Shown here: piece after piece, positions 3,324-57,865 of the stretch
How positions within the stretch are numbered: the stretch's first letter is position 1
Layout: every line of letters begins with the position of its first letter
Source: Shigella phage ESh36
DNA: 64,000 nucleotides
Direction: 5' to 3' (one strand)
Sequence record: ON528746
The notes under the pieces: model-generated
Databases searched by the model: none
What the model was told of the DNA's origin: nothing
The model's input: only the letters and a program-made list of their open reading frames with translations
Made by a program: the position numbers and the translations under genes

Positions 3324-5501
3324 TTAGGCCGCAAGGGCCTTCATAGTTTTAGCGATTTGGGAAACTTCATCATCACTTAAAGAGTTGCGATAACCGATGA
3401 AGTCGGAAACAATACGGAATTTCTTGGTAAACTCAGCAACCATTTTATCACTATTTTTTGAAGCATTACGTGATAATTCATCAAAGAGATTAGTTACTGT
3501 CCAGATATCATGACCAATGGTATCTTTTCCACCATTGAAATACACACCGCGTAATGAACTAACCATATTAGCGAGTCGTGTATATTCTTCAGAAACTTCA
3601 TCTGTACTGAAGTACTTCATCATAAAATCTAGTTCAGGATGCTTGATAATTTTATCAATATATCGTTGAGCTGAACTTGAATAACCTACATACTTATCAT
3701 AATCTACATCATCAAAAGCATCTACATATAAATCACGCAAAGCTTCAAAAATACATTGGCACTGACCGAGTTCTTTTACCTTTTTCTGTAAAAGCGGACG
3801 AATAACATAAAATTCATTAATGCCAATAAGATTAGCCATACGAATCAAAATATTCATAGATGGATGACAAAGTGATGTAGTACCATCCATAGAGAAAATA
3901 TCAGAACGATGCATATACGCTACATAACCAGTAATTTCATCTGCTTCTGACGTAAGTGTAAATAATTCCTCTTTTTCCCAACGCCCATCTTTAATTTCAA
4001 ACTTAAATGCTGTAGCAGCTTTAGGACGAGGAGCTTTACTTTTAACTGCCTTCGGAATATAACTTTTAACTAAAGCTTCAATTTCTGACAAATAATGAAT
4101 GTTAACTTCATCACTTTCAAACATTGCCATAATATCAGGGAGTAAATCAATCTGCGATTCTACTTCCGGATTAATAAACAAAAGACGCTCATTATGATGA
4201 ATATTCAAAGTGTTATTAAATTCACTATCATCTAACGCATGCGCTAATCCACGGACAATATTAACGCGATTTTTAATATTATCAATAACGATATTAATTT
4301 TTGTTGTATTAATACCGAACAGACGATAACTTGATGCAACGGCTGAAGTTTCATGACTTTGCTTAATGCGTTTCAGTCGAGGGTCAAGATTTACTTCATA
4401 CACAACTCCTGCATTGCATAGCTTACTATCTGGTTCAAACATGCTTTGCATCTTCTTATATGACAGATTTTTAGTCGTAAATTTGACTGAATTACTAATC
4501 ATATAATCTCGAGCAGAATATCCCATCTTCATCAATTCACGGTATGTATGACGAGGAGATGTAGATTCTTTAAATCGTTTTACATCTTCATTGAATGCCT
4601 TCTCACTAAGCTCTTTAACACGCTCAATAATATTTTTACGAGTACGATCATCTAATGAAAGAGCTTCGCGTGATGGAGCAATATCAAGTGAACCCATTGG
4701 AAACTTAATGTAATTCACTTCATTACGGATGCTTAACCAGTTACGGTCTCTAATAACACCATCAATAGGATAAACAATACCGCCGTAGATAGCATATAAT
4801 CCACCACGATCTGGCCAATATCTTTCTGGATTTACACCGTAATAGTCATCAAAATCCGGAAAATAATCAATTTCACGGTCAAGACCATTAATGATAGCCA
4901 AATCTTTGAATGGTCGCATGATATAAGAAACTTCATAAGCAAAGTTTCTAAAGTCTTTTTCTTCAACTGGAACTACGATTTCAATACCAGTTTTATCATC
5001 TGGACCCATTTCTTTTACGAATGTAGGTTTAATCTGTGGACCATCACCATCCATGTAAGCTACATAACCACGAATTTCACCTTTATGATATGAAGTAATA
5101 CTAAATGTATCAGTATAACTAAACGGAGATTTAGAACCTAAACCAAACCCGCCAATAAAGTCATTAGATTCAGCCTTAGATGAACTGAAGTATGAATTAT
5201 ACAGACCAGGAGAATTATCATCACCCTGAATATCAAAATCACTCATACCCGGACCAAAATCTCGACAAACAAATCGTGGATCTAAACGTCCAGGAACTTG
5301 TATGATAAATTTTTCAGGATTTCCATTGAGAGCATGGGCATCAATCATGTTGGTAATCAATTCACGGACTACTGCGCGAATTTTGTTTGTATACAAATCA
5401 GATGACAGAATTTTAAATACTTTAGGAGATGCTGTGATGCTAAATGCTTTTGATTTAGAACCATTACCAAGAATTGTTTCTTTTTCAGTGGTGATAATCA
5501 T
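3324..5501 (-). CDS. rIIA: rIIA protein
   Basis: 725-aa ORF beginning [27 protein letters not shown], matching recalled T4 rIIA N-terminus and length. Confidence 0.9.
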
Positions 5502-5511
5502 AATTTCCTCA

Positions 5512-5715
5512 TTAATTCATATTACGCTTAATAACTTCAGCAACTTCTAGTAGTTCATCTTTAGTTGCAGTGTCGGATTGAATTTTATCTCTAATATCCT
5601 TAAAGCGGTTTTTAAATTCTTCGGCTTCTCCCATATCGAAAAAGCGTTGAATGATTCTATATTCTCGATGAACTGCTTTATCAAAAAGTTCTAAATTTAC
5701 TTTATATGATTTCAT
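5512..5715 (-). CDS. rIIA.1-like small protein
   Basis: 67-aa ORF between gene 60 and rIIA, preceded by an early promoter. Confidence 0.6.
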
Positions 5716-5740
5716 TTCAATATCCTCATTTGCCCAATTA

Positions 5741-5770
5741 ATTATACCACATCCTTGTGGTAAAGTAAAC
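5741..5770 (-). promoter_or_regulatory. T4-type early promoter
   Basis: GTTTAC, 18 bp, TATAAT on minus strand; the -35 G is the last base of the gene 60 stop codon. Confidence 0.6.
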
Positions 5771-6302
5771 TACTGGCTCATCCATTCTTTACGAAGGTCA
5801 GCATTATCTCCCATGAGCATTTCAAAAAGCTCTTTCCAGTTCTCAGGAAGTTTAACAACATCATATACTGGATTTTGAATCATCTCACGATATTCAGATT
5901 TTTCCAAAGAGCCAAGTCCTTTAATATAACGGATGCTATGTTTAGGTAGAGCATCTTTGGCACTCTCATATTCAGCGACTGTATAAAACCATTCTTGTTT
6001 TTTACCGACCTGAGCGATGATTACAGGAGTTTTGACAAAGCGAATTCTTCCTTGTTCAAACAGTTCTGGCCAATTACTAAAAAATCCGAGCAGAGAAGGA
6101 TAAATAGAACCTAATCCAATAATCTCTTAATTATGAGGTATTTCTATAGATAGCCCGAAGGCTATCCATCGTGATCTGCGTCTGTCATAATAGCGACATT
6201 CGCATAGTTCATTGAAGAGGATTTAATAGAACGACGAACATTGTTCTGCAATTTATATTTTTTCATATCAACGCTAGAAGAATCAATTTTTACAAATTTC
6301 AT
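5770..6302 (-). CDS. 60: DNA topoisomerase II small subunit gp60, interrupted by 50-nt bypass; CDS = join(6165..6302, 5770..6114) on minus strand
   Basis: Codons 1-46 MKFVKIDSS...MTDADHDG end at take-off GGA, then UAG and a 50-nt gap with CUUCGG hairpin and landing GGA, then LGSIYPSLLGFF...EWMSQ in frame. Confidence 0.85.
6115..6164 (-). other. 50-nt translational bypass (hop) element of gene 60
   Basis: mRNA UAGCCUUCGGGCUAUCUAUAGAAAUACCUCAUAAUUAAGAGAUUAUUGGA between matched GGA codons. Confidence 0.85.
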
Positions 6303-7101
6303 TATACACCTCATAGAACTTTTCATCAGGAATCCAACCGCGTTTAAATTCATTAAATGCTCGGCCGAATAATTTTGAATTCACAGTTATATTATTAACT
6401 GATTTCCATTTAGCAACTCCCGTTCGTTTATAATGATCGGGGTCATATTTCGTGACGTACCATTCATATAAATTTGGTATTAATTTTACAGCCTCTGGAT
6501 TTGTCGCTGATTTATTATACCATGGTTTCGCCTTTTCAAGTTCAGCTGCTTTTGCAGTAGCAGCAACAGTATTTCCAATACCAACTAATTTTTCAGCTTT
6601 AATGCGTGGATCATTAACATGAAGACGAAAAACTTCGCCTTTTTCATTTTTAAAGCATGTCATGCCTTTAATTCCAGGAAGCTTAACACCTTTATTAACA
6701 CCGCACCATTCCTTTGGGTTAAATGATCCTTTAATTAATAAGGCGCATTTACCCGATTTAATACTTCTCATTAAAACTTTATCTTTCATAAAGTTTTTTG
6801 ACCATTCAGATACTGCTCTTTGATGGTAAATTCTAGCAATTTCATATAATTTACTAGAACGTAAATATTTTTCAGTGTTTAACATTCTATTCATCGCATA
6901 TGCCATTTCACGATTACGATGAATTTTATATAGTAGAAAATGTGCTAAAAAGTGTTCACGAAAAGTCAGTTTCACCAAATTTTCTTTATCATCAGAACCT
7001 CCCATTGATCTTGGAAGGATATGATGAATTTCACCCTTAAATTTAGAAACGCGGGTTTTACCCCGCACTATTAAGTCATTATAGATTTTTTCGTAATTCA
7101 C
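6283..7101 (-). CDS. mobA: HNH homing endonuclease (MobA-like)
   Basis: HNH motif EIHHILPRSMGGSDDKENLVKLTFREHFLAHF; lies between gene 39 and gene 60; apparent GTG start overlapping gene 39 end. Confidence 0.7.
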   Translation of the reverse strand: MNYEKIYNDLIVRGKTRVSKFKGEIHHILPRSMGGSDDKENLVKLTFREHFLAHFLLYKIHRNREMAYAMNRMLNTEKYLRSSKLYEIARIYHQRAVSEWSKNFMKDKVLMRSIKSGKCALLIKGSFNPKEWCGVNKGVKLPGIKGMTCFKNEKGEVFRLHVNDPRIKAEKLVGIGNTVAATAKAAELEKAKPWYNKSATNPEAVKLIPNLYEWYVTKYDPDHYKRTGVAKWKSVNNITVNSKLFGRAFNEFKRGWIPDEKFYEVYNEICKN

Positions 7102-8632
7102 CTACTGTTATCCATTTACCATTAATCTGTACTTCATCATTTTCATTTACGATAATTGTATCGCCATTTAGTTCGAAAGTAAACCACTCGCCATCTTCTT
7201 TTTCTTCAAACGCCTTTTCACCAAGAACTAATCCAGTGATTGCGCAAATATCAAATAATTCTTTGTTTTTAAGCATATCGGCATATGACATACCCCAACT
7301 GTTGAGAACTTTACCACGTAATGGATAACCGCCATGAAGTTCTTTATCACGAACATCAATAAGATATCCGATAGCAGAATCACCCTCAGTCAAGAAAAGA
7401 GTAGTGTCAGCGTCTTTACCGCAAAGATTCGCTTTAATATGTTTATGAACCTTAGCTTTAGAAGCCTTTTTAGCTGCTTTAGTTTCTGCTGCTTTTTCTG
7501 CCGCCAATTTACGAGCCAAGGCAGCTTCAATAATTGGCATCAAAATAGCTTCATTATTTAGAATAGCGCGTGAAATCTTTTTAGCATCAAGTTGAATATG
7601 ACTACGGATTTCACCAAATGGAGAAGTCAAACGCTCTTTAGTCTGAGAATCAAATCGCATGTTTTTCATATCACGAACAAACATAACGATAGTCAAACAT
7701 TCTTTAACGCGTGCTTTAGTTACATCAATTTTGAACTTGCGTTTGATTTGTGGAATAAGGTCTTCACAAATATCATCCATAACACAGTCAATGTGATGGC
7801 CACCATTCTTAGTATGAATGTTATTGACGTATGTTAATTGACGAAAACCATCCGGTGAACGACCAACCGCAATAGAACAATTTTCTTGTTCTTGAACGAT
7901 AGCATGTTCATCATACTGTCGTGCATATTTCTTAAAATTGCCCTGAACCTTTTTACCATTAAAGGTAAATTGAATATCAGGATAAACAACAGCAAGTGTC
8001 TGGAGACGATCTAGTGTAATGTCAAGATAAACCTGAGATAGCTCATTAGTTTCAAATGACATAAAATCAGGAATGAAAGTAACACGAGTTCCTTTCCATT
8101 TTCCAGGAATAGTTTCCCATGATTTATTTTCCATGCCATTTGAACAACGAACTACAATATTATTTTGACCGTCGCCAGTTTCACCGACAAACATCACAGA
8201 AAAAATGTTAGTTAAACTAGAACCAACACCGTTCATACCGCCAGTGACACGTTCTTTATCATCGCCAAAGTTACCACCTGCTTTTGGAATAGTCCATGCA
8301 GCAACAGGACCAGGAATTTCTTCACCGGTAGGTGTTTTAACCATTGCCTGTGGAATACCACGACCGTTATCTTCAACTGTTACTTGGTTGTTTTTGATAG
8401 TAACATTAATTTTATTTGCGAATTTAAACTTAGTACGAATACCTTCATCTACTGAGTTATCGATAATTTCATCAATAAGCTTAACAAGACCAGGTACATA
8501 CTGAACACTTTCCCATTTACCAAACAGAAAGCGCTCATGCATTTCATTAGCAGAAGAACCAATGTACATGCCGCTACGCTTTTTGATATGTTCAATATCG
8601 CTCAGAATTTTAATTTCATTCTTAATCATCAC
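7079..8632 (-). CDS. 39: DNA topoisomerase II large subunit (GyrB-like ATPase) gp39
   Basis: 517-aa ORF with GHKL ATPase motifs (IIDNSVDEG, GGMNGVGSS). Confidence 0.9.
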   Translation of the reverse strand: MMIKNEIKILSDIEHIKKRSGMYIGSSANEMHERFLFGKWESVQYVPGLVKLIDEIIDNSVDEGIRTKFKFANKINVTIKNNQVTVEDNGRGIPQAMVKTPTGEEIPGPVAAWTIPKAGGNFGDDKERVTGGMNGVGSSLTNIFSVMFVGETGDGQNNIVVRCSNGMENKSWETIPGKWKGTRVTFIPDFMSFETNELSQVYLDITLDRLQTLAVVYPDIQFTFNGKKVQGNFKKYARQYDEHAIVQEQENCSIAVGRSPDGFRQLTYVNNIHTKNGGHHIDCVMDDICEDLIPQIKRKFKIDVTKARVKECLTIVMFVRDMKNMRFDSQTKERLTSPFGEIRSHIQLDAKKISRAILNNEAILMPIIEAALARKLAAEKAAETKAAKKASKAKVHKHIKANLCGKDADTTLFLTEGDSAIGYLIDVRDKELHGGYPLRGKVLNSWGMSYADMLKNKELFDICAITGLVLGEKAFEEKEDGEWFTFELNGDTIIVNENDEVQINGKWITVGELRKNL

Positions 8633-8656
8633 TTATCCTCGTTTGGTTTCGGGAAT

Positions 8657-8681
8657 ATTATACTCCGGTAATCATAAAGCT
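8657..8681 (-). promoter_or_regulatory. candidate MotA-type middle promoter for gene 39
   Basis: TAGCTTTA box, 12 bp, TATAAT on minus strand. Confidence 0.4.
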
Positions 8682-8698
8682 AAAGGCCCGAAGGCCTT
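8682..8698 (-). terminator. UUCG-tetraloop hairpin
   Basis: mRNA AAAGGCC-UUCG-GGCCUUU right after stop of ORF 8699..8959. Confidence 0.45.
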
Positions 8699-8959
8699 TT
8701 ATTTAAAACGGATAGTCGAATCCTTGAAGAATAGACCAGAACATACGGTTCCTTCTACTTTCTGCCCGGTAGGTCCAATAGCACGAAATCCAGTATGTTG
8801 GAAATCATTTTCAGAGCAACCGAACCAGTTATATCCAGTGATTTCAATATTAGTAAAACCACTTGAAGACAAAACTTTGGTTGCATTATCAGCATCAGTA
8901 CATCCTGCTAAAGACACTGCTAATACTAATGCTGCGATAGAACGATTAACATATTTCAT
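8699..8959 (-). CDS. putative lipoprotein
   Basis: 86-aa ORF with signal peptide and lipobox-like LAGC. Confidence 0.5.
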   Translation of the reverse strand: MKYVNRSIAALVLAVSLAGCTDADNATKVLSSSGFTNIEITGYNWFGCSENDFQHTGFRAIGPTGQKVEGTVCSGLFFKDSTIRFK

Positions 8960-12797: not shown

Positions 12798-13029
12798 ATT
12801 TAATCAGCAGCTTACAGACACTTTCATCTAGCGTAATTACCGTGTCTGTATTACTGTGATATGATTGTTTTTCAATTCGTTTAATTGCTAGTATAGTATC
12901 ACTTATAAGATTAAGCTTATAAAGGAGCTCAGCTCCTGTTACCATAACACTGAGGTTATCTTGCTTATCAGTGTGCTTCTTTATACCATCTATTAGACGA
13001 TTTAAATATTTTGAATTGATGTTAATCAT
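12769..13029 (-). CDS. hypothetical small protein (paralog family member)
   Basis: 86-aa ORF, similar size and pattern. Confidence 0.45.
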   Translation of the reverse strand: MININSKYLNRLIDGIKKHTDKQDNLSVMVTGAELLYKLNLISDTILAIKRIEKQSYHSNTDTVITLDESVCKLLIKFEEAIRGNN

Positions 13030-13035
13030 ATATCC

Positions 13036-14355
13036 TCACACATAAAACACATCATAACGACCACGAGTGACACCAACATAAAGAAGCTGCTGAGCCAATT
13101 CAGCATCTGCATAATGAATACAAGGTGTGTAGATGAAAGCACGATCTACAGACATGCCCTGAGCTTTGTGGAATGTTGATGCAGGAAGTGCTTTCACTTT
13201 ACTAAACTGCGATTTAGCATCCCAAAAATCACTCCAAGGAGCTTTTCCACCTTTATTCCAATTTTTATACGTTTCTGCCGTTTTACCTAAAAATAAGTTA
13301 AACTTATACAGCTCTTCATCAGATGAAATTATTTTAATCTTTTCACGATAATATTCATCATCGCCGTAAGTTTCTACTGTTAAATCCCAATGACGAATTA
13401 GATATTCTCCAGAAACACCACGAGCTTTAACAAATGTTGATGTATACTCTGCTTCTATAATACGAACTAATTGTCCGTTATTAAAAATAATTTCTGACAC
13501 AGGCTTTCCATCAATTTTATATGTTTTAATTAATGGTTCCTGCATTACAATAATTTCACCAACGATAAAATCTTTATCAGTTTCAAAAATCTTTTTACGA
13601 ATAATGTTATTTAACTTGTCAACAGATTTATTCGTAAATGCCATTACGCGATTTTCAAACAAATCATCTAATGATTTTACGATTGAAAAATAATTTACCA
13701 TAAAATCGCGTAAAGCGGTATCACCAGTAAATCCACGTACTCCATGCCCGTCAACAACTTTATCATAAATCCACTTACCGTTGCGAACATCAGTAGCTAC
13801 ATCAATAATAGGAGCATTACTGCGTTTAACTTCAGTGAGTTCACACTGATAAAAATCTTTATGTGTAAAGAACGGACTGATATAAGCAGTGTTTTCTCCT
13901 GGGTCAACAGGTCTAATTTGCTTATTATCGCCTATTCCAATTATAGTACACCACGGCGGGATAGTTGAAAGCAGAATTTTAAATAGCTTTCTATCATACA
14001 TTGACACTTCGTCGCAGATTAATACTCTGCATTTAGCTAAATCCGGTACTTCTTTTTGTTCAAAAAGAACGTTTTCTTCATATGTTACCGGGTTAATTTT
14101 GAGAATACTGTGAATAGTACTCGCTTCTTTCCCTGACAGTTTAGAAAGAATCTTTTTAGCTGCATGAGTAGGAGCTGCTAAAATAATGCCAGTTTCGCCC
14201 GTAGATATTAAGGCTTCAATGATGAACTTAGTAAGAGTAGTCTTACCAGTACCAGCAGGTCCATTAATAGTTACATGATGTTTCTTTTCTTTAATAGCCC
14301 TCATAACGATGTTAAAGGCATTTTTCTGGCCTTCGGTCAAATCATCAAATGTCAT
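13036..14355 (-). CDS. dda: Dda DNA helicase (SF1)
   Basis: 439-aa ORF with Walker A GPAGTGKTT. Confidence 0.85.
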   Translation of the reverse strand: MTFDDLTEGQKNAFNIVMRAIKEKKHHVTINGPAGTGKTTLTKFIIEALISTGETGIILAAPTHAAKKILSKLSGKEASTIHSILKINPVTYEENVLFEQKEVPDLAKCRVLICDEVSMYDRKLFKILLSTIPPWCTIIGIGDNKQIRPVDPGENTAYISPFFTHKDFYQCELTEVKRSNAPIIDVATDVRNGKWIYDKVVDGHGVRGFTGDTALRDFMVNYFSIVKSLDDLFENRVMAFTNKSVDKLNNIIRKKIFETDKDFIVGEIIVMQEPLIKTYKIDGKPVSEIIFNNGQLVRIIEAEYTSTFVKARGVSGEYLIRHWDLTVETYGDDEYYREKIKIISSDEELYKFNLFLGKTAETYKNWNKGGKAPWSDFWDAKSQFSKVKALPASTFHKAQGMSVDRAFIYTPCIHYADAELAQQLLYVGVTRGRYDVFYV

Positions 14356-16818: not shown

Positions 16819-17001
16819 TTATTTTGCCCAGGGAGCCCAGGGCGGAGGGTCAAGATGGTATGAAGCTAGTTCTTCTAGAAGAGCATCTGGGGCTTCAATT
16901 CCATAATTCTGTAATACTATACGGTACTCTTTCTTATAATCACTAGAATCATTCTGGATATTCGTAGAATGATTATCTTCTAACATCTCAAATAAATCCA
17001 T
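16819..17001 (-). CDS. hypothetical protein
   Basis: 60-aa ORF. Confidence 0.4.
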   Translation of the reverse strand: MDLFEMLEDNHSTNIQNDSSDYKKEYRIVLQNYGIEAPDALLEELASYHLDPPPWAPWAK

Positions 17002-17009
17002 ATTAATTC

Positions 17010-17480
17010 CTAGCGATAAAAACCAAAATGACGATTAGCTTCAATAATCTTTCTTTCTTCTTCGGACATTCTCCAGCGTAGTCCAACATCAAAATGAGCC
17101 CAGACCATCTTAACAAATGCATTTATATCTTTAATATCTTCAATAATGAATGATTTACTTTTAGAAGGTTGACTCGCTAATTTAACTTTATCGTCTTCAA
17201 ACAGGTCAAAAAGACCATATTCATGGGCTCTTTTATAGCCTTTAATAGTTAAAGCTTCAGAAGAAGAAAAAGGTGAATCAGTATTCTGCAAAATATCTTC
17301 AGTATGCTTTATAATTAGAATAACATTTTCTGGATATTTTCTTTCTTTTATATCTTTAATTAAAATATCCGGATTTTCTGCTAAAGGAATAATTAATGAG
17401 CACTTTTTATCAAGTGCATTTACTGATTTACCTTCTTTAGACATAAATTCTATTGAATAATGTTTTGCTACTTCAATCAT
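17010..17480 (-). CDS. hypothetical protein
   Basis: 156-aa ORF. Confidence 0.5.
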
Positions 17481-17633
17481 GTGATTTCCTTTTGCCTACT
17501 AATGGGCCGTCAGGAATTTTGTTTTCCTGGATATATTTCTCATTTTCTTCCATCATTTTACTGCCAATTTTAAGAAGCAAATCCAGTGCTTCATTTGCTT
17601 TAGCCTTGGCCTCTTCTAGCGTCATATCTCTGT

Positions 17634-19226: not shown

Positions 19227-19745
19227 TCAATAACCTCGGTCTTGACGAGCGAAGTTTTCAGCATTTTTCAGATAATAAAGTTTAAAGATTTCTTCAGCCG
19301 TAAGACCGAGACCTTGGAACATGTTCAGAACGAAATGAAGAATATCAATCATTTCGAATTTAATTTCCAACTGGTCTTGTGGAGATAAGTCAGTAATCAG
19401 AGTTTCACGACGTTCACCGTGTTGCGACTTCCAAGGCTTCCATACAGCAGATGCATCTTTTTCGCCATTGCTCATACCACCAAGAGAAGTCAGAAGTTCG
19501 CGGAATTCATCATCAATATAATCTTTCTGATTACGCAGCCAATCAACAACTTCACCTGCAGTAGCCAAATCATCAGGATGACGGTTATATTCAGGTTTAT
19601 CTTTAGCTAAACGAACCTGCAGAGATTTCTGCATATCAAGCATAACTTGCAACGGATCTTTTTCATCACCGAGAATATCCCAGTATTCATTTTGAGCTTT
19701 ATCAGCGCCTTCAATCAGTTGACTACATTCATTAAAGTAAGCCAT
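19227..19745 (-). CDS. 56: dCTPase/dUTPase (gp56)
   Basis: Start at internal ATG (MAYFNECSQ), about 172 aa; size and position match T4 gp56. Confidence 0.75.
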   Translation of the reverse strand: MAYFNECSQLIEGADKAQNEYWDILGDEKDPLQVMLDMQKSLQVRLAKDKPEYNRHPDDLATAGEVVDWLRNQKDYIDDEFRELLTSLGGMSNGEKDASAVWKPWKSQHGERRETLITDLSPQDQLEIKFEMIDILHFVLNMFQGLGLTAEEIFKLYYLKNAENFARQDRGY

Positions 19746-19779
19746 TATTTTTCCTTTCAATTCATGGGTTAGTAGATTA

Positions 19780-19803
19780 ATTATACAATAAATATATAAA
19801 GCA
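19780..19803 (-). promoter_or_regulatory. candidate MotA-type middle promoter for gene 56
   Basis: ATTGCTTTA box, 11 bp, TATAAT. Confidence 0.45.
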
Positions 19804-19816
19804 ATAAGGAGGACAT

Positions 19817-23018: not shown

Positions 23019-23048
23019 ACTATACCATAGTCTTGTCAGCTTGTAAAC
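23019..23048 (-). promoter_or_regulatory. T4-type early promoter
   Basis: GTTTAC, 18 bp, TATAGT; -35 overlaps the gene 41 stop codon (TAGTTTAC). Confidence 0.55.
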
Positions 23049-23671
23049 TAAAATTTTAATTCATTTGCCAAAGCATCTAACTGTGCTCGAGTGGATTCAT
23101 TTCTTTGATAGCGATTCTGCTCAGCCTGAATCTGTTGTGAACCTGCTACCTCACTCACTTCAGTTGGAGTAGAATCTTGTTCAATTTCTACCCATTTCTG
23201 ATTTCCTTTTTGAACACCCATCAAAAACTTATTCCATTTGTTCTTATCACCATATCGTGATTTGATTTGCTTAATGAGTTGTTGTTCAGCAGCTGCTAAC
23301 TCCTCAGTTTCAATGACTGCAAGCATAAAATCAGCTGTTGCTGGAAGTCCGGCACTGTTTTTAGTCAGTATACCGTTAGCATAGAAAAGCTGGTCCCCGG
23401 CAACAGAAATATCATACATCATGTCTTCTTCGAGTTCTTCAATTTTCAGAACTTCATCATTATAATCAAGTAATTTATCTGTTTTCTCATAAAGCTTAGC
23501 GTTATACTTTTCTGTCTGCATCAGAGCTTCAAAGATTTCTTCAGCGGAAGAATCATTACCGTTGATTGATGCATAATGATTAGCAATTGACCAACATCTT
23601 AAAGATGCTAGATACTCATCAAAATCCGTGTACTCTGCCGTCCCATCCAAATTATACACATTAGCAAGCAT
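23048..23671 (-). CDS. 41: helicase gp41 C-terminal fragment: split-intein C-half fused to C-extein
   Basis: KIEELEEDMMYDISVAGDQLFYANGILTKN (intein blocks F/G) immediately followed by SAGLPATADFMLAVIETEEL... helicase C-terminus; start of C-half uncertain. Confidence 0.75.
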   Translation of the reverse strand: MLANVYNLDGTAEYTDFDEYLASLRCWSIANHYASINGNDSSAEEIFEALMQTEKYNAKLYEKTDKLLDYNDEVLKIEELEEDMMYDISVAGDQLFYANGILTKNSAGLPATADFMLAVIETEELAAAEQQLIKQIKSRYGDKNKWNKFLMGVQKGNQKWVEIEQDSTPTEVSEVAGSQQIQAEQNRYQRNESTRAQLDALANELKF

Positions 23672-24659
23672 TTTTAATCACCTCTACCATTTCAGATAGT
23701 CTCATTGTATCATTGATTCTTACTAAAGCAAAACCATTCTTTTTCGCTATAAGCTCCTTCCTAAGATCTTTTCTTATCGCCTTAGTTTGGCTTATACCAT
23801 AAACATACCCTCGATACTCATGCTCATGACCTTTAATAACATGGAATGCTCTGCCGTCATATTCTATTAAAGTATTGCCTATTTTACCATCATAAAATAC
23901 GATAGAATTTTTTCTTCTAATAAACCATTCTCTATCGATCTTTATTGACAAAGCCGCTTCTATTTGGTTTAATATTCTATCACATTCTTTTGACGTACGG
24001 GTTCTTGGATTTTTAAAAAATGCTCTAGCTTGTTCTGCCTTTTTATCTTTATACACATGTTCCCAGCTATTTCCGTATTTGTATTTTAATTTATTTTTAA
24101 AATTTTCAACGGTTTTTAATGCGTGAGATTCTTTGGCTTCTTTGAGAGCTTGCTCGGGGTTATCAACTCCTTTGTTAGTCCAAAATTCCAATTCATACCA
24201 TTTTCTATTAGATTTGTGCCAATTTTTCTTAAGTGAAATTGAAATCTTTTTAGAAATTTCTTCAGATTTTTTGAATTTTGATTTTGTCAAAGGATTTGAA
24301 TTTCTAACTTTAGCACCTGAAATATAATTAGCATTCGCCTTCGACCATGCGTATTCAGCATAAGCTAAACCATATACTAAAACATTTCTATCGTATTGTG
24401 ATATTCCCGCAATAGAAATTTTGCCTCGTTTGAGGCATTGTTCTATCTCAGATTCTGTTGGCCAACAGCATAACCTAGCATAGTATTTTACTGTAGATTT
24501 TAAAAATATCGTTTTATCTAATTTTATGGATGCAAGATGTTCCTTTATTTTTATAATATTATATTCCTTTGGCTCATTAACAAGTTCATCTTTAAAATGT
24601 TTTAAAGAACAAAGGCGTTTCCATACGCCTTCAACAGAATAATCAGTTATTTGTCGCAA
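23661..24659 (-). CDS. free-standing homing endonuclease, EDxHD / Vsr-like (DUF559) family
   Basis: 332-aa ORF in a third frame between the gp41 halves; C-terminal FYDGKIGNTLIEYDGRAFHV...DLRKELIAKKNGFALVRIND; apparent TTG start. Confidence 0.65.
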   Translation of the reverse strand: MRQITDYSVEGVWKRLCSLKHFKDELVNEPKEYNIIKIKEHLASIKLDKTIFLKSTVKYYARLCCWPTESEIEQCLKRGKISIAGISQYDRNVLVYGLAYAEYAWSKANANYISGAKVRNSNPLTKSKFKKSEEISKKISISLKKNWHKSNRKWYELEFWTNKGVDNPEQALKEAKESHALKTVENFKNKLKYKYGNSWEHVYKDKKAEQARAFFKNPRTRTSKECDRILNQIEAALSIKIDREWFIRRKNSIVFYDGKIGNTLIEYDGRAFHVIKGHEHEYRGYVYGISQTKAIRKDLRKELIAKKNGFALVRINDTMRLSEMVEVIKNAC

Positions 24660-26028
24660 ATTTAGTACCTACCGTAATACCATTGGCAATAGACATTCTT
24701 CCACGGTCTGTTGGAAACTTATGCATATCCGAGCATATGATTGTTTTACCTGATTTAAGAGTAATTTTGTATTTTTTAGAACGCTTCGGATGAGAAACTT
24801 GGATGACAGGTCTGAATCCATCATATGATTCGACCATATCACCTACTTTAACTTCATTGATGAATTTTTCACCCTTTAAAGTTTTTACTACAGTAGATTT
24901 ATCTAAACATTCTGCAATATCACTCATGTTAACATCAGAAGAATCCCAAGCTTGTTTACCAACCTGCGCTGCAGTCCAAAGAACAGTTTCGGTTTCAACA
25001 GCCAGAGCACGCAATTCCTCTGCAATAGCTTTAACAGTTGTGTAACTATTTTCTGAATAAACTCTAATGCGGCAAGATTTACAAATACCTAGATAGTCGA
25101 CAATAATGATTGTTGGAACAAAATTCTTCTTGAGCTTTAATTCATTTAAAAGTGATCGAAATGTATTAGCGTCTGCTCCACCAGTAGGATATTGCTTAAC
25201 GATTAAACGACCAAGGGTAGATTTCTCACGCCATTTTTCCATTTTTCCTTTATATTCAGCGTAAGAAATATGTCCATCATCAATATCGTCAAGAGAAACA
25301 TCGAGCATATTAGCATCAATACGCTTAGCACAGACTTCTTCTGCCATTTCCATGGAAATGTAAAGAACATTATGTCCGAGCTGCAAATAATCTGCTGCCA
25401 ATGAACACAAACCTAATGACTTACCGACGTTAACACCAGCCATTAAAACGTTCAGTGTTCCTGTCTCAGCTCCGCCTTTAGTAATTTTGTTTAGAATTCT
25501 GAGTTTAAATGGAACCTTACGAGCTTTATTCATATAAGATAGCCAACGTGCTTCGTAGTCATCCATCCAATCATGACCAACGTAGCTATCAAATGAAATT
25601 GATAATGCTTGCCGCATAATGTCAGGAATAGCACCAACATCCGGCATTTTCTTATTTCGTTTTTCCGGAGGAAGTTCAGCATTGGTTTGAATTTCGATTA
25701 TTTTAGACGTAGCATTAAACATCGCCCTTTGCTGAACATATTTTTCTGTTTCTTTTATTAACCAGCTGTGGTCTTCTGGAGAATCAGCCAGTTTTGAAAT
25801 AAGTGTTTTTACACCAGAATATTCTGTTTCAGTAAATGAACTATTTTCTAATGCAACATTTAACGCATTAATAGATGGAACGCTATGATACTCATTAACA
25901 TGAGATTTAATTAATTTGAACGTATTTTTAGCTGGACCACTTTCAAAATATTCTGAATCCATATATGGCCAAACTTTTGAAAAATAAGCTTGATCAAATA
26001 TGAGATGAGAAAGAATAATTTCTACCAC
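24643..26028 (-). CDS. 41: helicase gp41 N-terminal fragment: N-extein (373 aa) fused to split-intein N-half (88 aa)
   Basis: DnaB-like helicase with Walker A GVNVGKS up to ...NMSDIAE, then CLDKSTVVKTLKGEKF...TIICSDMHKFPT (intein blocks A/B) and stop. Confidence 0.8.
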   Translation of the reverse strand: MVEIILSHLIFDQAYFSKVWPYMDSEYFESGPAKNTFKLIKSHVNEYHSVPSINALNVALENSSFTETEYSGVKTLISKLADSPEDHSWLIKETEKYVQQRAMFNATSKIIEIQTNAELPPEKRNKKMPDVGAIPDIMRQALSISFDSYVGHDWMDDYEARWLSYMNKARKVPFKLRILNKITKGGAETGTLNVLMAGVNVGKSLGLCSLAADYLQLGHNVLYISMEMAEEVCAKRIDANMLDVSLDDIDDGHISYAEYKGKMEKWREKSTLGRLIVKQYPTGGADANTFRSLLNELKLKKNFVPTIIIVDYLGICKSCRIRVYSENSYTTVKAIAEELRALAVETETVLWTAAQVGKQAWDSSDVNMSDIAECLDKSTVVKTLKGEKFINEVKVGDMVESYDGFRPVIQVSHPKRSKKYKITLKSGKTIICSDMHKFPTDRGRMSIANGITVGTKFATNN

Positions 26029-28236: not shown

Positions 28237-29077
28237 CTGCTATTGGATGAATAGCATTAAACTTATGAAATGCTTCTGATTTTTCTTTGCGCGAAACACA
28301 CATGCGAAGAACCTTTAATGGTTCATCTTCTTCACCCAATGATTTTCGTTTTTCAATATTAGAAGTTTTCCAACGAGCTTGCTCTGGAAACTCTCTATTG
28401 ATTTGCTCAAGCGCTCTATTATGTTTAGAATTACTACGAATTGAACTACACCCGCCGGGAGCGTGTGATTTTCCAGATACAACTAGATATTTGAACAAGG
28501 CCAAATGCGGATAACCTTGATTAATTAAATTGAGAAATGCATACATATCTTCGCATAAATCAATTTTTCCATACCCAATTTGTTCTGTCGTAAGTTTTCC
28601 GAGGTCATACCATGTATTCGTAAATCCATATGAATTTTCACGATAATTACCCCAAGATGAAGTAATTTTAAAAATTGGTAGACGAGCATGACCGTGATAA
28701 TACCCGCAATCCATAGCATCTTCAACGTATTGAATCAATTCGTAGAATTGTTCACGGGTTAATTGATTAATTTTATCTACGCGCCGTTTATCGTCTCTCT
28801 TTCGTATTGAACTCATACGAATAGTAGTATCATCATCAATCATCCAGATTCGTTGACCTGCATACATATCAGTAATTGCTTTACGAGTACCGGCAATTCC
28901 ATTAACATCATCAGGAATAGTTACAATTTTAGCTCTAGACCCATAAGCATCATAATAAGCTTTTTCTTCGTGTTCACGCACTACAATATGTGGTTCATAA
29001 TCAGTCGGAAACATATCAAGGGCAGAAACTGCCCCTACACGTTGATAGCTTGGAATTACGAATTGAATCATTTCCAC
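28229..29077 (-). CDS. GT-A type glycosyltransferase (DxD) at the beta-gt locus
   Basis: 282-aa ORF with IPSYQR and MIDDD motifs; unlike the 351-aa GT-B beta-gt recalled for T4. Confidence 0.5.
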   Translation of the reverse strand: MEMIQFVIPSYQRVGAVSALDMFPTDYEPHIVVREHEEKAYYDAYGSRAKIVTIPDDVNGIAGTRKAITDMYAGQRIWMIDDDTTIRMSSIRKRDDKRRVDKINQLTREQFYELIQYVEDAMDCGYYHGHARLPIFKITSSWGNYRENSYGFTNTWYDLGKLTTEQIGYGKIDLCEDMYAFLNLINQGYPHLALFKYLVVSGKSHAPGGCSSIRSNSKHNRALEQINREFPEQARWKTSNIEKRKSLGEEDEPLKVLRMCVSRKEKSEAFHKFNAIHPIAVD

Positions 29078-29808
29078 TCACCGTTATAATCTTTTTTCAC
29101 AATATGAGTTTCGCCAGTATTCCACCAATGATCAACCAAGTAAAAATGACGAGAATATACATGAAGACTTCCAACATTCCATATAATAGAGCCTGCTTTA
29201 TACTGACGAGTTGAATCGCCTGCATTCAAATCAGATACTAATTTATCTAATACGTATTTTTGCCATGCATAATCATTACGGAATCCGAAGACCACGTCAT
29301 TTGAGCGCATGCTTACTACTGCATTGACTTTCTTATCACGAATCAGGTACTGTACTGTATTCGTACACATGAAATCTGACATACCATCTTTATTGTAGTC
29401 AAATTGCATGGATGGACGAGTATAAATCATGATACCACGTCGAGAATCAGGATTTTGACCAAGTTCAGCTAAACACATATCATACTGAGCATAGTTATCT
29501 TCTGACCAGATAGCCCAACCATAATTCGAGTTAATTTCGCCTTTAGAAGATGCTACCTGCTGCCAAATCTTCGGTGTTTCACCTGGAATATCTTTAACGA
29601 ACAAGCTCTTAGATTTATACCATTCAAGTTCACGCTGAATGTATTCATCATTAAGAGCGCCAAAAATAAACGGTTCATCTGCTACAAATGATGCGCCAAT
29701 AATTTCAATAGTTTTAACGCCAGTTTTATCAATTACGAAATCTTTTTCCTTTAATGCAAGCCCCAAATGAAGACGGATTTCTTCAACTGTCATAGAGTCA
29801 TTAATCAT
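29068..29808 (-). CDS. 42: dCMP hydroxymethylase gp42
   Basis: 246-aa thymidylate-synthase-fold ORF; size and position as T4 gp42. Confidence 0.85.
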   Translation of the reverse strand: MINDSMTVEEIRLHLGLALKEKDFVIDKTGVKTIEIIGASFVADEPFIFGALNDEYIQRELEWYKSKSLFVKDIPGETPKIWQQVASSKGEINSNYGWAIWSEDNYAQYDMCLAELGQNPDSRRGIMIYTRPSMQFDYNKDGMSDFMCTNTVQYLIRDKKVNAVVSMRSNDVVFGFRNDYAWQKYVLDKLVSDLNAGDSTRQYKAGSIIWNVGSLHVYSRHFYLVDHWWNTGETHIVKKDYNGEWK

Positions 29809-39266: not shown

Positions 39267-40282
39267 TGTGTTGCCTCTACATATAACTGATTTGCATATT
39301 GAATAAGTGCTTCGCGATCAGAATCAGTGATGTCTGGAATTGCATTAATGTATTCTTCCATCAATGTCTGAAGAGATTGAACTTCAACTTCTTCACTATC
39401 ATCTGACTCGACAGAGTTATCAATCTTTGACACAACTCGTAATGAATGCACAACTTTTTCTAGTTCAGATTCGAACTTCGTTAGATTTTTGTCTACTTCA
39501 GTTACTATAACACGTACTGATAGATTTGTAAAATCTTTATAGTCAATTTTTCCCTTAAATGGATATTGAATTCGACGATGCCAGGTAGTGTTGTTTGGAA
39601 TAAATTCCATTCGTTCTGTTTCTGTATCAAACATCCAGAACCCGCGAGGGTCATTCTCGTCACCTGCAGTTAGTGTCCATGGTGTCCCAATATATCTGAC
39701 ATTAGCAGCCTCAGAGATAGTATGGAAGTGACCAGACCACACCTCTTTATAAGTCTTAAGGAAATCAGGTTCAAGACCGTGAGATTTCATTCCTTTATAA
39801 AAATAAAATCCATTCAGTTCCCAGTGACCAACACAAAAAGAAGCAGATGAAGTTTTGATATGTTCAAGAATTTCACCAGTATTTTCTTCACACATCCAAG
39901 GAATTAAATCAATCAAACATCCGTCAAAATCTACTGTAGTAGGCTTATCATATACTTTAACATTAGGATATTTAGCCAAAAGCTCAGTAGAAGCATTTGG
40001 ATGCATTACATTTTTGTAGTGGAGATCGTGATTTCCTACAATAGTATGTAATGTGATTCCAGCGTCATCAAGCATTTGAACTATTTCACGGGCAAACTCC
40101 ATTGTTTTATGCGTGATCGCTTTTCGCACATCAAAAATATCACCATATTGAATCCATACCGTAATTCCATTTTTCTTAGAATATTCTATCGCTTGCTTAA
40201 TTCCATCAATTTGAATACCGCGAATCCACTCATCATCAGCTTTAACGCCTAAATGCCAATCACCCAAGTTTAGTATTTTCAT
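39263..40282 (-). CDS. 47: recombination nuclease subunit gp47 (SbcD/Mre11-like)
   Basis: 339-aa ORF with phosphoesterase motifs DWHLG, GNHD. Confidence 0.85.
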   Translation of the reverse strand: MKILNLGDWHLGVKADDEWIRGIQIDGIKQAIEYSKKNGITVWIQYGDIFDVRKAITHKTMEFAREIVQMLDDAGITLHTIVGNHDLHYKNVMHPNASTELLAKYPNVKVYDKPTTVDFDGCLIDLIPWMCEENTGEILEHIKTSSASFCVGHWELNGFYFYKGMKSHGLEPDFLKTYKEVWSGHFHTISEAANVRYIGTPWTLTAGDENDPRGFWMFDTETERMEFIPNNTTWHRRIQYPFKGKIDYKDFTNLSVRVIVTEVDKNLTKFESELEKVVHSLRVVSKIDNSVESDDSEEVEVQSLQTLMEEYINAIPDITDSDREALIQYANQLYVEATQ

Positions 40283-40392
40283 GATGTCTTTTCCATCCTA
40301 ATTTAGCTGCTTTTGAAACCAGTTCTTTAATTTTTCCTTTTGCCCATTCAGGACCAGGAGGTTCATGACATAACATTTGCTTAACTCCGTTA

Positions 40393-40884
40393 TTATACCA
40401 TTTTTTTACCTTTATTATGTGATGAAGCTTTAAATTTATTTGACCTTCCTTTTACATAACCTTCTGGAATATAAGGTAAAAAGGCAGATTTTCCTGTTAA
40501 TGGATCATGTGAATGTATATTTCCTTTACAATTATGAGAACCATATAATGGATGATTTTGTCCTTTATTATCTCTTCCAAATGAACCTTTTGGAGCAGCA
40601 TATGACATATTAAAGAATAATGGATTTTTAACTGCATCATGCAATCGTTGATAATATAACTCGCATTTAATAGCTTCTTCACGCGTATCAAATTCAGCTA
40701 AAATGCATGAATCAAATAAGTGAGGATTATCTGAAAGCTCTTTATTATAAATTTTCTTATACTTTTTAGATAAAACTGAACCATGATATCCAGCTAAATG
40801 CCTATCTAAAGACGTAGATCCAATATAAAAAGGAGGAAGTTTATCTCCACTATATATTGTTAAATAAGTTATATATTTTTTCAT
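40393..40884 (-). CDS. GIY-YIG nuclease-domain protein (Seg-like, possibly truncated)
   Basis: N-terminal YITYLTIYSGDKLPPFYIGSTS with downstream R and E positions; only 163 aa. Confidence 0.5.
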   Translation of the reverse strand: MKKYITYLTIYSGDKLPPFYIGSTSLDRHLAGYHGSVLSKKYKKIYNKELSDNPHLFDSCILAEFDTREEAIKCELYYQRLHDAVKNPLFFNMSYAAPKGSFGRDNKGQNHPLYGSHNCKGNIHSHDPLTGKSAFLPYIPEGYVKGRSNKFKASSHNKGKKMV

Positions 40885-41061: not shown

Positions 41062-42263
41062 TATTTTGTAATAATGTCAAATTGTTCTTTAAAGCAGAAG
41101 CTTGAATCTTGATGCTGATACAAAAATTCATAAGCTTTTTCGCGTTCGCGGTCATAAAGAGCTCGGTCAGATGACAGTTCTTTAATACGTTCAAATGTTG
41201 ATTCCATGTCATTTTCATCAAACCAAACGATACCGCTATCATGAGAAATTAACGGAGTATTATCAACACGAAATTTTAAATTTTCGCCAGTAGATTTCCA
41301 AAATACTGGAATTGTTCCGCATGCACCAAGCTCTAGATGAGTATATTCTAAAGAACGTTGTAGATATTTTTTATCTAATTTACTCAGCTGATAACCAAAT
41401 CCGGATTTACTCATGCGTTCAAGCATTTCACTATTTACATAACGGTCAAGAATTTGCGTTGGCAAATTAGGAGCAATTTTAATTTGGTCTACTTGATGAA
41501 GACGATAATACTCATATGGAATTCCTTTTTCTTTAATAGGAATGAACGCTGGAGAACGTTCCAGACCTTCCATAATAGTACTTAGTCCTGCAGGTTTAAG
41601 ATGTTTTTCGTGAAAATCAAACATCTGATAAAAACCTTTCCATGTAGTCGTACGACCAATCCAACGGTTGACATTCATATTAATTTCAGAAACATCTTTC
41701 CAGTATGTTGATCGAACCTTCGCAATATCCATAGGAGGCTGAAAGTTGTATACAGTCGGTGCTTCTTCAATATCATCAAACAGAGAAACTGTTTCTGGAT
41801 ACCATTCTTTCATCAAAACTTTATTAAAATCGCCATTATCAGAATGGCTAAAAATAACATCAGCTCGACGAACAGTTTCTTCTAATCCCAAATTTCGGCG
41901 CAAAGAAAGAGAAGAATGGTCATGTTGATAAACTACAACACGAACCGAAGGTTTAATGTTATCAATAATTTTTTTATAGTTATTAATAGTGTCTTCTTCG
42001 ACTGAAGTAGCAGGAACTGAATTGATAATTAGAATATCACAATCATTTACCAGCTTAAGTGTTTTATCGTATTCTTTTGCCAATAAAACCGGAATTGAAA
42101 ATGATTTATAATCATGCGCGCAATTACGAGTAAATGATTTATCTTTAGCATAAACCAAAGTTACTTCATGACCATTTTTAATAAACCAATCACGCTGCTC
42201 GAGAGAAAATTTAGTTACGCCGCAACCTTCAAGACCTCGAGCCATAAAAATGCATACTTTCAT
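41061..42263 (-). CDS. a-gt: DNA alpha-glucosyltransferase
   Basis: 400-aa ORF; size and position between genes 55 and 47 match T4 alpha-gt. Confidence 0.8.
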   Translation of the reverse strand: MKVCIFMARGLEGCGVTKFSLEQRDWFIKNGHEVTLVYAKDKSFTRNCAHDYKSFSIPVLLAKEYDKTLKLVNDCDILIINSVPATSVEEDTINNYKKIIDNIKPSVRVVVYQHDHSSLSLRRNLGLEETVRRADVIFSHSDNGDFNKVLMKEWYPETVSLFDDIEEAPTVYNFQPPMDIAKVRSTYWKDVSEINMNVNRWIGRTTTWKGFYQMFDFHEKHLKPAGLSTIMEGLERSPAFIPIKEKGIPYEYYRLHQVDQIKIAPNLPTQILDRYVNSEMLERMSKSGFGYQLSKLDKKYLQRSLEYTHLELGACGTIPVFWKSTGENLKFRVDNTPLISHDSGIVWFDENDMESTFERIKELSSDRALYDREREKAYEFLYQHQDSSFCFKEQFDIITK

Positions 42264-42287
42264 TTAATATCCTCATTGTTTTGGTTT

Positions 42288-43757: not shown

Positions 43758-43835
43758 TTTCACCTCTTAGCTCAATTCATAGATCTATTATATCATAATA
43801 TTTGAATATCTATCTTAAAGCATAGAGGATATCAG

Positions 43836-44105
43836 TTATCTAAGTAAACAGTATGCTTGGAACACTTTCTCCATCATCTTTTTAAATTCATGAATATCTA
43901 TATAATGACTAGTTAAATCAGCATGATATAAAAAGTCTAAAAACTTTTCATGTGTGCTAACATATTCGCTTTCATTTAATTCAGAAACATGGCTTTCCCA
44001 ATATCCAACACCAGTCTTATTTGGGAAAAATGAAATTTTCATGCATTGGTCAACATAGAAAATACCAAAATTTTCAATAGCAATAGAAATATTAATTAAT
44101 TTCAT
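43836..44105 (-). CDS. hypothetical protein
   Basis: 89-aa ORF. Confidence 0.45.
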   Translation of the reverse strand: MKLINISIAIENFGIFYVDQCMKISFFPNKTGVGYWESHVSELNESEYVSTHEKFLDFLYHADLTSHYIDIHEFKKMMEKVFQAYCLLR

Positions 44106-46297: not shown

Positions 46298-46768
46298 TTA
46301 ATCATGTTTCCACACCCCATCGGTATTTGACCAAAGTCGCTGATTATCTGATCCTCGCCACAGCTTTTTAGTCGGAAGATTTTTCTCATACTTCCCATCA
46401 ATAATAACATCAACATATTTAAGCATTTCTAGTTGTTTAATATCCTCAAACTTATATCCTGTCCACAACCAAATGCTTTTATTTGGATAAAGATTTTTTA
46501 CTGTTTGAACAATGCAATGAATAACATCTCGGTTATCAGGATAGAGAGGGTCTCCTCCAGTTATAGTCAATCCTTCTATATAATCATTATTCAAACATTC
46601 AATTAATTGTTCCAGTGTTTCACCAGTGAATGGAACGCCATTTCTAGCATTCCATGTTGATTTATTATAACACCCTTCGCATTTATGCAAACAACCTGTG
46701 ACGAAAAGAACGACCCTGCATCCAGGGCCATTCACAAAATCACAAGGATAAAATCTATCATAATTCAT
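46298..46768 (-). CDS. nrdG: anaerobic ribonucleotide reductase activase NrdG (radical SAM)
   Basis: 156-aa ORF with cysteine cluster CLHKCEGC. Confidence 0.8.
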   Translation of the reverse strand: MNYDRFYPCDFVNGPGCRVVLFVTGCLHKCEGCYNKSTWNARNGVPFTGETLEQLIECLNNDYIEGLTITGGDPLYPDNRDVIHCIVQTVKNLYPNKSIWLWTGYKFEDIKQLEMLKYVDVIIDGKYEKNLPTKKLWRGSDNQRLWSNTDGVWKHD

Positions 46769-57386: not shown

Positions 57387-57422
57387 TTTATTCTCCAATC
57401 TCACATTTGTTTTGATAGGGTA

Positions 57423-57452
57423 ATAGTATCACACTACTACCCTTCTGTAAAC
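57423..57452 (-). promoter_or_regulatory. T4-type early promoter
   Basis: GTTTAC, 18 bp, TACTAT. Confidence 0.55.
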
Positions 57453-57455
57453 AAT

Positions 57456-57719
57456 TTATTTTAACGTTCGCCAAATTTTTACTGCTTCACGGCGAGATAC
57501 TTCTACAGCTCCAAGTTCTATAGCTTTTTGGCGTCGGCGAGCGTGTAAGTCATAATGTTTAATGCGTTTATCTTGAAACCAAGAACGTTTCATTCCTATT
57601 GCTTCTGCCATTTCATGAAGCTCTTCAATATCTCCATCAGTGAACATATGACAATTTTTAGTTGGATGACCGCGAAGTTTCCATCCATGATTCATTAAAA
57701 CATCTACGTAAACTGTCAT
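57456..57719 (-). CDS. hypothetical protein
   Basis: 87-aa ORF. Confidence 0.45.
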   Translation of the reverse strand: MTVYVDVLMNHGWKLRGHPTKNCHMFTDGDIEELHEMAEAIGMKRSWFQDKRIKHYDLHARRRQKAIELGAVEVSRREAVKIWRTLK

Positions 57720-57865
57720 TGATTCTTCTCCAAATAAGTTTCGATAATTTTCTGAGCGAGATAAACCGCGTTATCTTCAGTTGCGTCTTCTAAGAAACTT
57801 TCAAAACACTCTGAAATTTCTTCTGTGTCAATCAACTTTTTTACTTCAATTGGTGTAATTTTCAT
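57716..57865 (-). CDS. hypothetical small acidic protein
   Basis: ATG at 57865 (MKITPIEV) with GGAG SD and early promoter. Confidence 0.4.
   Translation of the reverse strand: MKITPIEVKKLIDTEEISECFESFLEDATEDNAVYLAQKIIETYLEKNQ

Follow-up and report, generated by a model that had tools for sequence, protein, structure and literature searches.

A clade-1 MobA element with the T4-type gene 60 bypass cassette in the topoisomerase gene of Shigella phage ESh36

Introduction

How is gene 60 of Shigella phage ESh36, which encodes part of the phage topoisomerase, read across a stop codon and a change of frame, and how did the element that interrupts it come to be there? We addressed this question in a 64,000-nt stretch of the phage genome (record ON528746), hereafter the window. 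All coordinates refer to the whole window, and gene 39, the homing endonuclease gene mobA and gene 60 all lie on its minus strand; the strand is a correction to an earlier interpretation made from the letters alone (the sequence-only reading). The gene 60 bypass was reportedly described by Huang and colleagues in 1988 and by Weiss and colleagues in 1990. The sequence-only reading called the element known biology, and rightly, since the T4 bypass and the MobA element are already published: the phenomenon has been known since 1988, its mobility since 2011 (Bonocora et al.), and its distribution was surveyed in 2022 (Manning & Atkins). We conclude, with a probability of about 0.96, that the locus is a clade-1 (T4-type) MobA element in the gene for the topoisomerase II large subunit, with the T4 gene 60 bypass.

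Anatomy of gene 60 and its 50-nt gap

Gene 60 consists of two open reading frames (ORFs) on either side of a gap, the first forming the N-terminal extension (NTE) of its product, gp60.

6165..6302, minus strand: gene 60 ORF1 (NTE), codons 1-46; translation 100% identical to that of T4T
6302-6213, minus strand: unique gp60 head, codons 1-30
6212-6165, minus strand: homR, codons 31-46, which holds the Toprim DxDxD motif MTDADHDG
6115..6164, minus strand: 50-nt coding gap, UAGCCUUCGGGCUAUCUAUAGAAAUACCUCAUAAUUAAGAGAUUAUUGGA, with UAG at its start and the landing GGA at its end
5770..6114, minus strand: gene 60 ORF2, codons 47-160 plus stop; Pfam TOPRIM_C

The gene opens with an ATG at 6302. Its codon 46 is GGA (6167-6165) and is followed directly by UAG (6164-6162), as the sequence-only reading had stated; when the zero frame is read past codon 46, stops occur at codons 47, 53 and 64 (n = 3). 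The second GGA (6117-6115) forms the 3′ end of the gap and is the sole GGA within it. The codon of take-off and that of landing thus match, GGA/GGA, and call for the same tRNA, as clade-1 bypass requires. Coding restarts at TTA 6114 and ends at TAG 5772-5770. The statement that coding resumes in frame 50 nt later, after a second GGA, was exact as to the distance and the codon but not as to the frame: 50 nt equal 16 codons plus 2, so the frame of ORF2 differs from that of ORF1. The Toprim glutamate (TEGDSA) is encoded in gene 39, and the DxDxD motif lies in ORF1 directly before the gap.

Comparison with T4 and with an unsplit topoisomerase gene

The region 5700-7200 is 99.4-99.6% identical to T4, T4T, RB55, e11/2 and others. 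Neither the gap nor the 160-aa spliced gp60 differs from its T4T counterpart (100% identity). In T4T the 50 nt bear the misc_feature “non-coding translational bypass region”, and in T4 records they are likewise marked as a bypass region, inside a joined gene 60 coding sequence (CDS). A 116-nt query around the gap matched 53 phage records, among them 41 of the T4 clade at identities of at least 98.3%, the remainder belonging to the Proteus, Salmonella S16 and Shewanella clades. In 28 of the 41 the segment is identical (E = 9e-53), and because these records are independent the interruption is neither chance nor artefact, which disposes of the objection that it arose in sequencing. When IMG/VR was scanned for an exact 22-mer of the take-off region there was no hit, so the T4-type cassette was encountered in isolate genomes and assemblies alone.

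Of the backbones in the phage collection, that of Shigella phage ESh16 is the closest; it has a single gene for a 605-aa topoisomerase large subunit, no mobA and no gap. The comparison with a fused 39/60 relative that the sequence-only reading had proposed gives a clear result: residues 27-160 of the spliced gp60 align with residues 472-605 of the fused ESh16 protein without a gap. The junction ...MTDADHDG/LGSIYPSLL... is intact, with G46-L47 of gp60 matching G491-L492 of ESh16. All 114 of the 114 residues of ORF2 equal ESh16 residues 492-605 while the DNA differs, and we therefore regard ORF2 as being under purifying selection; its differences from both ESh16 and T4T are synonymous only. The spliced gp60 matches the gp60 family PHROG 7229 end to end, and also maps to positions 502-638 of the fused family PHROG 543.

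These results bear on two ways of explaining the locus without a hop. Judged by sequence alone, a stop after codon 46 together with a frame change could mean that gene 60 has been broken by a 50-nt insertion, or that ORF1 and ORF2 give separate peptides, and many public annotations do present gene 60 as fragments only. We rejected this reading, which we consider highly improbable, because ORF2 is under purifying selection and colinear with ESh16, because it has no ATG, GTG or TTG ahead of codon 116 (69 codons without a start), and because, set against the unsplit homologue, the sequence passes from the essential Toprim DxDxD motif in ORF1 into ORF2 with no break; these grounds exclude both that gene 60 is dead and that ORF2 is initiated independently. 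In addition, bypass of the same sequence is an experimental finding in T4. Removal of the gap at the RNA level, by a small intron or by editing, or its origin as a sequencing or assembly artefact, is more improbable still. Self-splicing introns exist in other genes of T4-like phages, but 50 nt is too short for a group I or group II intron, the gap segment is the same in all 28 independent records, and a search of the whole window against Rfam at gathering thresholds returned zero matches, so that neither a curated RNA family for the bypass element nor an intron is indicated. In T4 the 50 nt are reported to stay in the mature mRNA.

Bypass signals and a proposed mechanism

The following sequence elements lie in and around the gap.

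6213..6263, minus strand: nascent-peptide bypass signal, codons 14-30, KKYKLQNNVRRSIKSSS; identical to T4
6177..6204, minus strand: 5′ stem-loop, of T4-identical sequence; predicted -10.8 kcal/mol, z = -1.7
6146..6169, minus strand: take-off stem-loop, a 10-bp stem with a UUCG tetraloop; GGA and UAG within the 5′ arm
6124..6126, minus strand: GAG mini Shine-Dalgarno (SD), 6 nt 5′ of the landing GGA, with AUUAUU between
6047..6098, minus strand: 3′ stem-loop region (forward slippage barrier), host-derived, of ESh16 type (6063 C, 6055 A, 6048 A)

Every bypass determinant in the window is T4-identical except the host-derived 3′ stem-loop. The key residues of the published list, Y16, Q19, V22, R24, Y33, M39, T40 and H44, are all conserved in ORF1. 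The distance of the GAG from the landing codon falls in the 5-7 nt typical of the T4 signal, and the gap is AU-rich towards its 3′ end. The take-off stem-loop has a predicted free energy of -14.7 kcal/mol (z = -5.0), and 0/200 shuffles were equally stable. A CUUCGG hairpin had been described as lying directly after the stop; the C(UUCG)G-capped hairpin exists, but it does not start after the stop, because the take-off GGA and the UAG lie in its 5′ arm. The three differences from T4 in the 3′ stem-loop (the T4 type has U, G and C at 6063, 6055 and 6048) are all synonymous. The ESh16-type variant is also present in JEP6 and pSe_SNUABM_01, and since both of these phages carry the cassette it is evidently cassette-compatible. 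According to the literature, the 5′ and 3′ stem-loops enhance bypass in T4, and both are poorly conserved.

Some observations weigh against the assignment. The 3′ stem-loop is weaker in prediction, at -11.0 kcal/mol in the window versus -15.5 in T4T (neither fold beats shuffled sequences), and with its three changes the efficiency of bypass could differ from that in T4. The MobA protein scores 20.1 bits against the Pfam HNH model, just below the curated cut-off of 21.4; because of this sub-threshold score, its family membership rests on PHROGs and on near-identity to T4T. In addition, mobA has a GTG start without a strong Shine-Dalgarno sequence.

By analogy with T4, from whose literature we infer hopping itself, its efficiency, the activity of MobA and a protective role of the gap, the following mechanism can be proposed. 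The element splits the host gene into gene 39 and gene 60, adding a 43-aa tail to gp39 and a 46-aa head to gp60 and putting an untranslatable gap of 50 nt behind codon 46. Ribosomes on gene 60 would slow down and then stall at GGA-46, the UAG standing in the A site, while the nascent peptide KKYKLQNNVRRSIKSSS would anchor the peptidyl-tRNA(Gly) in the exit tunnel. The short UUCG-capped take-off hairpin would form in the A site, and termination would be blocked. EF-G and GTP would then drive the sliding of a hyper-rotated ribosome over the 50 nt, with the 5′ stem-loop refolding behind it. Pairing of the GAG mini-SD with the anti-SD, together with the 3′ stem-loop, may aid landing at the second GGA, where re-pairing would let translation resume at Leu47 and yield the 160-aa gp60, with an efficiency of roughly 50%. 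About 50-60% of ribosomes complete the hop in T4, according to the literature. MobA, for its part, would nick cassette-free alleles in the region equivalent to homR, and repair would then copy the element into them; the gap, which would lie some 20 nt away from the nick site, may shield its carrier from further nicking by MobA. For T4-related phages, the nicking of cassette-free alleles, homing in mixed infection and the protection of carriers by the gap are attributed to Bonocora et al. (2011) in the accounts that cite that work.

Gene 39, mobA and the structure of the element

The element extends from the 3′ end of gene 39, where it encodes a C-terminal extension (CTE) of gp39, into the start of gene 60 ORF2.

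7079..8629, minus strand: gene 39, which encodes the N-terminal portion of the divided large subunit of topoisomerase II (516 aa, followed by the stop); Pfam HATPase_c and DNA_gyraseB
7082..7210, minus strand: CTE of gp39, 43 aa, FEEKEDGEWFTFELNGDTIIVNENDEVQINGKWITVGELRKNL; no counterpart in the fused ESh16 protein
6283..7101, minus strand: mobA, an intact HNH-family homing endonuclease gene, 272 aa, GTG start; from the ORF list
6106..7211, minus strand: MobA mobile element, 1106 nt; from three-way and seven-way alignments with the cassette-free ESh16

The element boundaries come from alignments with ESh16 and five cassette-bearing phages. From 5′ to 3′ the element consists of the CTE (43 aa), mobA, the unique gp60 head (30 aa), homR (16 aa), the 50-nt gap and 9 nt; these last are the first 9 nt of ORF2 (6114-6106), the remainder of which is parental. 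Residues 1-473 of gp39 are parental, being 100% identical to residues 1-473 of the fused ESh16 protein, and residues 474-516 are the element-encoded CTE; gp39 has the same length as gp39 of T4T, with 4 aa differences. The homR segment is 69-71% identical to the parental ESh16 sequence. The parental fused gene loses 64 nt to the element, which is inserted after aa 473 in the Toprim domain. The net gain is 1042 nt, the split gene measuring 2860 nt and the fused gene 1818 nt. The sequence-only reading had set the locus at 5770-7101, a range that holds for gene 60 and mobA; the cassette itself reaches 7211, into the 3′ end of gene 39.

The adjacent HNH endonuclease gene named in that reading is indeed present and intact. 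MobA is identical to T4T MobA at 271/272 residues, the sole difference being A169 versus T, and it matches PHROG 655 (“homing endonuclease”) at 2.5e-57. The gene shares 23 nt with gene 39 and 20 nt with gene 60, and its frame differs from that of either. The exact MobA sequence is recorded in e11/2, CE1 and other phages, and a full-length close mobA match is found in about 40 records.

In the published MobA elements an HNH ORF of 269-279 aa lies between the gene halves and overlaps both out of frame. Manning & Atkins (bioRxiv 10.1101/2022.08.31.505936) describe elements that measure 1097-1106 nt and lie in the Toprim domain at aa 466-473, where they take the place of 55-75 nt (in HY01, 64 nt are deleted); clade 1 has an additional 9 nt, the CTE is ~43-44 aa long and the NTE 44-46 aa, and homR shares 67-81% identity with the parental sequence. 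The window element agrees in length, deletion, CTE, NTE, homR identity and the extra 9 nt. The suggestion that the bypass and mobA together form a mobile cassette is thus borne out by an element of 1106 nt whose anatomy matches the published description.

A scan of positions 5400-8900 found fewer promoter-like sites than expected by chance and no terminators. A strong sigma-70-like promoter match lies right after the gene 60 stop, upstream of rIIA.1 (5769-5741, minus strand); it consists of TTTACT, a 17-nt spacer and TATAAT with an upstream TG (10/12 positions).

Probable recent mobility of the cassette

The window lies in a genome that differs from T4 elsewhere, and the expectation that it would be informative about the spread of the cassette was justified: the backbone is ESh16-like, and the element is near-identical across phages. 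When the first 25 kb of the window served as query, its best relatives matched 86-91% of it at 95-98% identity. Between the window and e11/2 the element differs at 1/1106 nt (99.91% identity) and the body of gene 39 at 56/1418 (Fisher p = 2e-13); between the window and T4T the figures are 4/1106 nt (99.64% identity) and 55/1418 (Fisher p = 3e-10). Across six cassette-bearing genomes the gene 39 bodies are about 96-97% mutually identical and the elements, which fall into two sub-variants, 98.5-99.9%. The changes of type are abrupt: gene 39 is of ESh16 type down to 7223, the sequence is of T4 type from the element boundary through 6106, and it is of ESh16 type again by 6063. An element much less diverged than its flanks has the expected signature of a recently mobile cassette, in agreement with the published conclusion, and lends indirect support to homing by MobA.

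It is possible, at somewhat less than even odds in our judgement, that ESh36 and ESh16 constitute a natural pair of carrier and empty site from one isolate series, in which case an e11/2- or T4-type donor would have passed the element to an ESh16-type gene 39/60 very recently, with almost no flanking sequence (less than ~12 nt 5′ and less than 43 nt 3′). The competing explanation, which concerns the evolutionary reading and not the identity of the element, is that the cassette came down vertically as an ancestral trait of this lineage and that ESh16-like relatives lost it when they recombined with empty-site alleles, its presence then being uninformative about recent spread. Homologous recombination at the same boundaries would leave one and the same picture whether the element was gained or lost, precise loss (“hit and run”) is on record for other clades (Manning & Atkins, bioRxiv 10.1101/2022.08.31.505936), and the detailed comparison took in seven genomes only. 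We consider vertical inheritance unlikely in view of the 1-4 differences per 1106 nt in the element against 55-56 per 1418 in the adjoining gene 39 body, and of cassette bearers whose gene 39 bodies have diverged while their elements have hardly done so. It is also disfavoured by the five closest backbones (ESh16, pSs-1, ESh34, sb2 and sb3), which do not appear on the complete list of gap-bearing records.

Relation to known bypass elements

The T4 gene 60 and MobA system shares with the window the 50-nt gap, both GGA codons, UAG, the UUCG hairpin, GAG, the nascent peptide, the 5′ stem-loop and the 160-aa product, and the T4 MobA element has the same 1106-nt length and the same Toprim insertion site. 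The window differs from T4 in its backbone, which is that of a different Tequatrovirus with an ESh16-like gene 39, 96% identical to T4. The old T4 reference AF158101 gives mobA as a pseudogene plus 60.1; in the window the gene is intact. Unlike T4T, it has neither segF, mobB and mobC nor the nrdD group I intron with its endonuclease, while segA and mobA are kept.

19228-19264, 42254-42279, 46748-46768, 48044-48047 and 58993-59962: window sites that lack T4T homing genes or the intron, or are altered at mobD

Two unrelated ORFs occupy the mobD position, a 157-aa ORF without a Pfam hit and one for a y05I-like protein. The homing-endonuclease content is therefore very different from that of T4, with segA and mobA retained, most of T4's other homing endonucleases missing, segF, mobB, mobC and the nrdD intron gone, and mobD replaced.

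A second clade-1 gap variant is found in JEP6, HY01 and pSe_SNUABM_01, which carry the same element at the same site with the same 50-nt length, 98.6-98.8% identical to the window element. In these phages the G.U pair that involves the first base of the take-off codon has become G-C through a U-to-C change at 6148, an A-to-U change at 6145 abolishes the second in-frame UAG, and the NTE carries two further changes; the gap in the window is of the T4 type. MobA elements of the same architecture, in the same target gene, are also found in Proteus PM2/Pm5461, Salmonella S16, Shewanella Thanatos, Acinetobacter and Aeromonas phages. Elements of other clades were detected at 75-81% identity to the gap segment, and these clades of Myoviridae differ from the window in having diverged gap sequences, loops, gap lengths and codon pairs (GGG/GGA, GGU/GGC, GAU/GAC). 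The mitochondrial “byp” elements of the yeast Magnusiomyces capitatus are likewise bypassed in a programmed way, between codons that match at take-off and landing, and have a hairpin at take-off. Their sequences bear no relation to the T4-type element: they are inserts of 27-55 nt that spread like GC clusters, with neither an endonuclease cassette nor such a nascent-peptide signal.

In many public records gene 60 is split into “topoisomerase” fragments of 34, 46, 97 or 107 aa and not given as a joined 160-aa CDS. Such fragmentation is found in e11/2, JEP6 and pSe_SNUABM_01, and the ESh36 record itself has a 34-aa fragment (URY15980.1). The e11/2 record labels MobA as “MobE”. Partial MobA and gp39 sequences occur on contigs of 277-2009 nt labelled Enterococcus faecalis in NCBI, and these are probably T4-like phage contamination or spike-in. 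In Escherichia phage CJY920 (PQ349265.1), the match to the 1501-nt query region is broken into two pieces that together extend over 2415 nt, a layout that implies about 900 nt of putative extra DNA within the interval of gene 39, mobA, gene 60 and rIIA.1.

Gene 41 and other differences from T4

Gene 41 (replicative helicase), whose locus extends over 23048-26028 on the minus strand, is interrupted at ...SDIAE/SAGLPATADF... by about 1.55 kb (about 23354-24909, minus strand).

26028-24643, minus strand: N part of gp41 with a Hint-N-like tail (CLDKSTVV...)
24659-23661, minus strand: 332-aa ORF between the gene 41 parts, with a conserved FYDxK...EYDG..WH motif
23671-23048, minus strand: Hint-C-like segment (...LFYANGILTKN/S) with the C part of gp41

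The Hint-N-like segment is 47% identical to what we take to be the N half of the gp41-1 split intein, and the Hint-C-like segment is 58% identical to what we likewise take to be its C half. The nearest structural neighbours of the 332-aa ORF are the homing endonuclease I-Bth0305I and Vsr, both weak matches (E-values 0.17 and 0.36, probabilities 0.97 and 0.90). Among 50,697 phage records nothing matched the insert, as DNA or as protein, and 1.84 billion proteins yielded only six cluster representatives for the ORF. The locus looks like a split-intein “fractured gene” in an enterobacterial T4-like phage, and the predicted fold of the ORF looks like that of a Vsr/I-Bth0305I-type endonuclease. The “fractured gene” arrangement was described from marine metagenomes (Dassa et al. 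2009). It is a rare one, and gene 41 is probably of greater interest than the gene 60 locus.

Other differences from T4 are scattered through the window. Gene 56 (dCTPase; 19264-19806) is 77% identical to T4T, its neighbours being 92-98% identical. The dam methyltransferase gene of T4T (T4T 16832-17611) has no window counterpart, with about 20 nt between the flanking homologies, and ESh16 is the same in this respect. At the T4 beta-glucosyltransferase region (T4T 24248-25483), window positions 28251-29086 hold about 835 nt without a blastn match to T4T. Blocks of 230-600 nt without a blastn match in the collinear T4T are found at 40282-40878, 57398-57859, 60518-60964, 12806-13036 and 43830-44091; these are presumably small accessory genes.

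Significance

This locus is one more clade-1 case of a known phenomenon, and the value that it adds is modest. It concerns the annotation of gene 60, which many records, that of ESh36 included, break into fragments, and the setting of the element: the closest sequenced relative of its backbone still has the gene unsplit, and the limits of recombination are very tight. The comparison of ESh36 with ESh16 is a clean illustration of cassette mobility. If the element did enter an ESh16-type gene very recently, a T4-type bypass cassette would now be joined to a non-T4 3′ stem-loop, and the two phages would provide a ready system for the tract lengths of MobA homing and for the share of the host-derived barrier in the efficiency of bypass.

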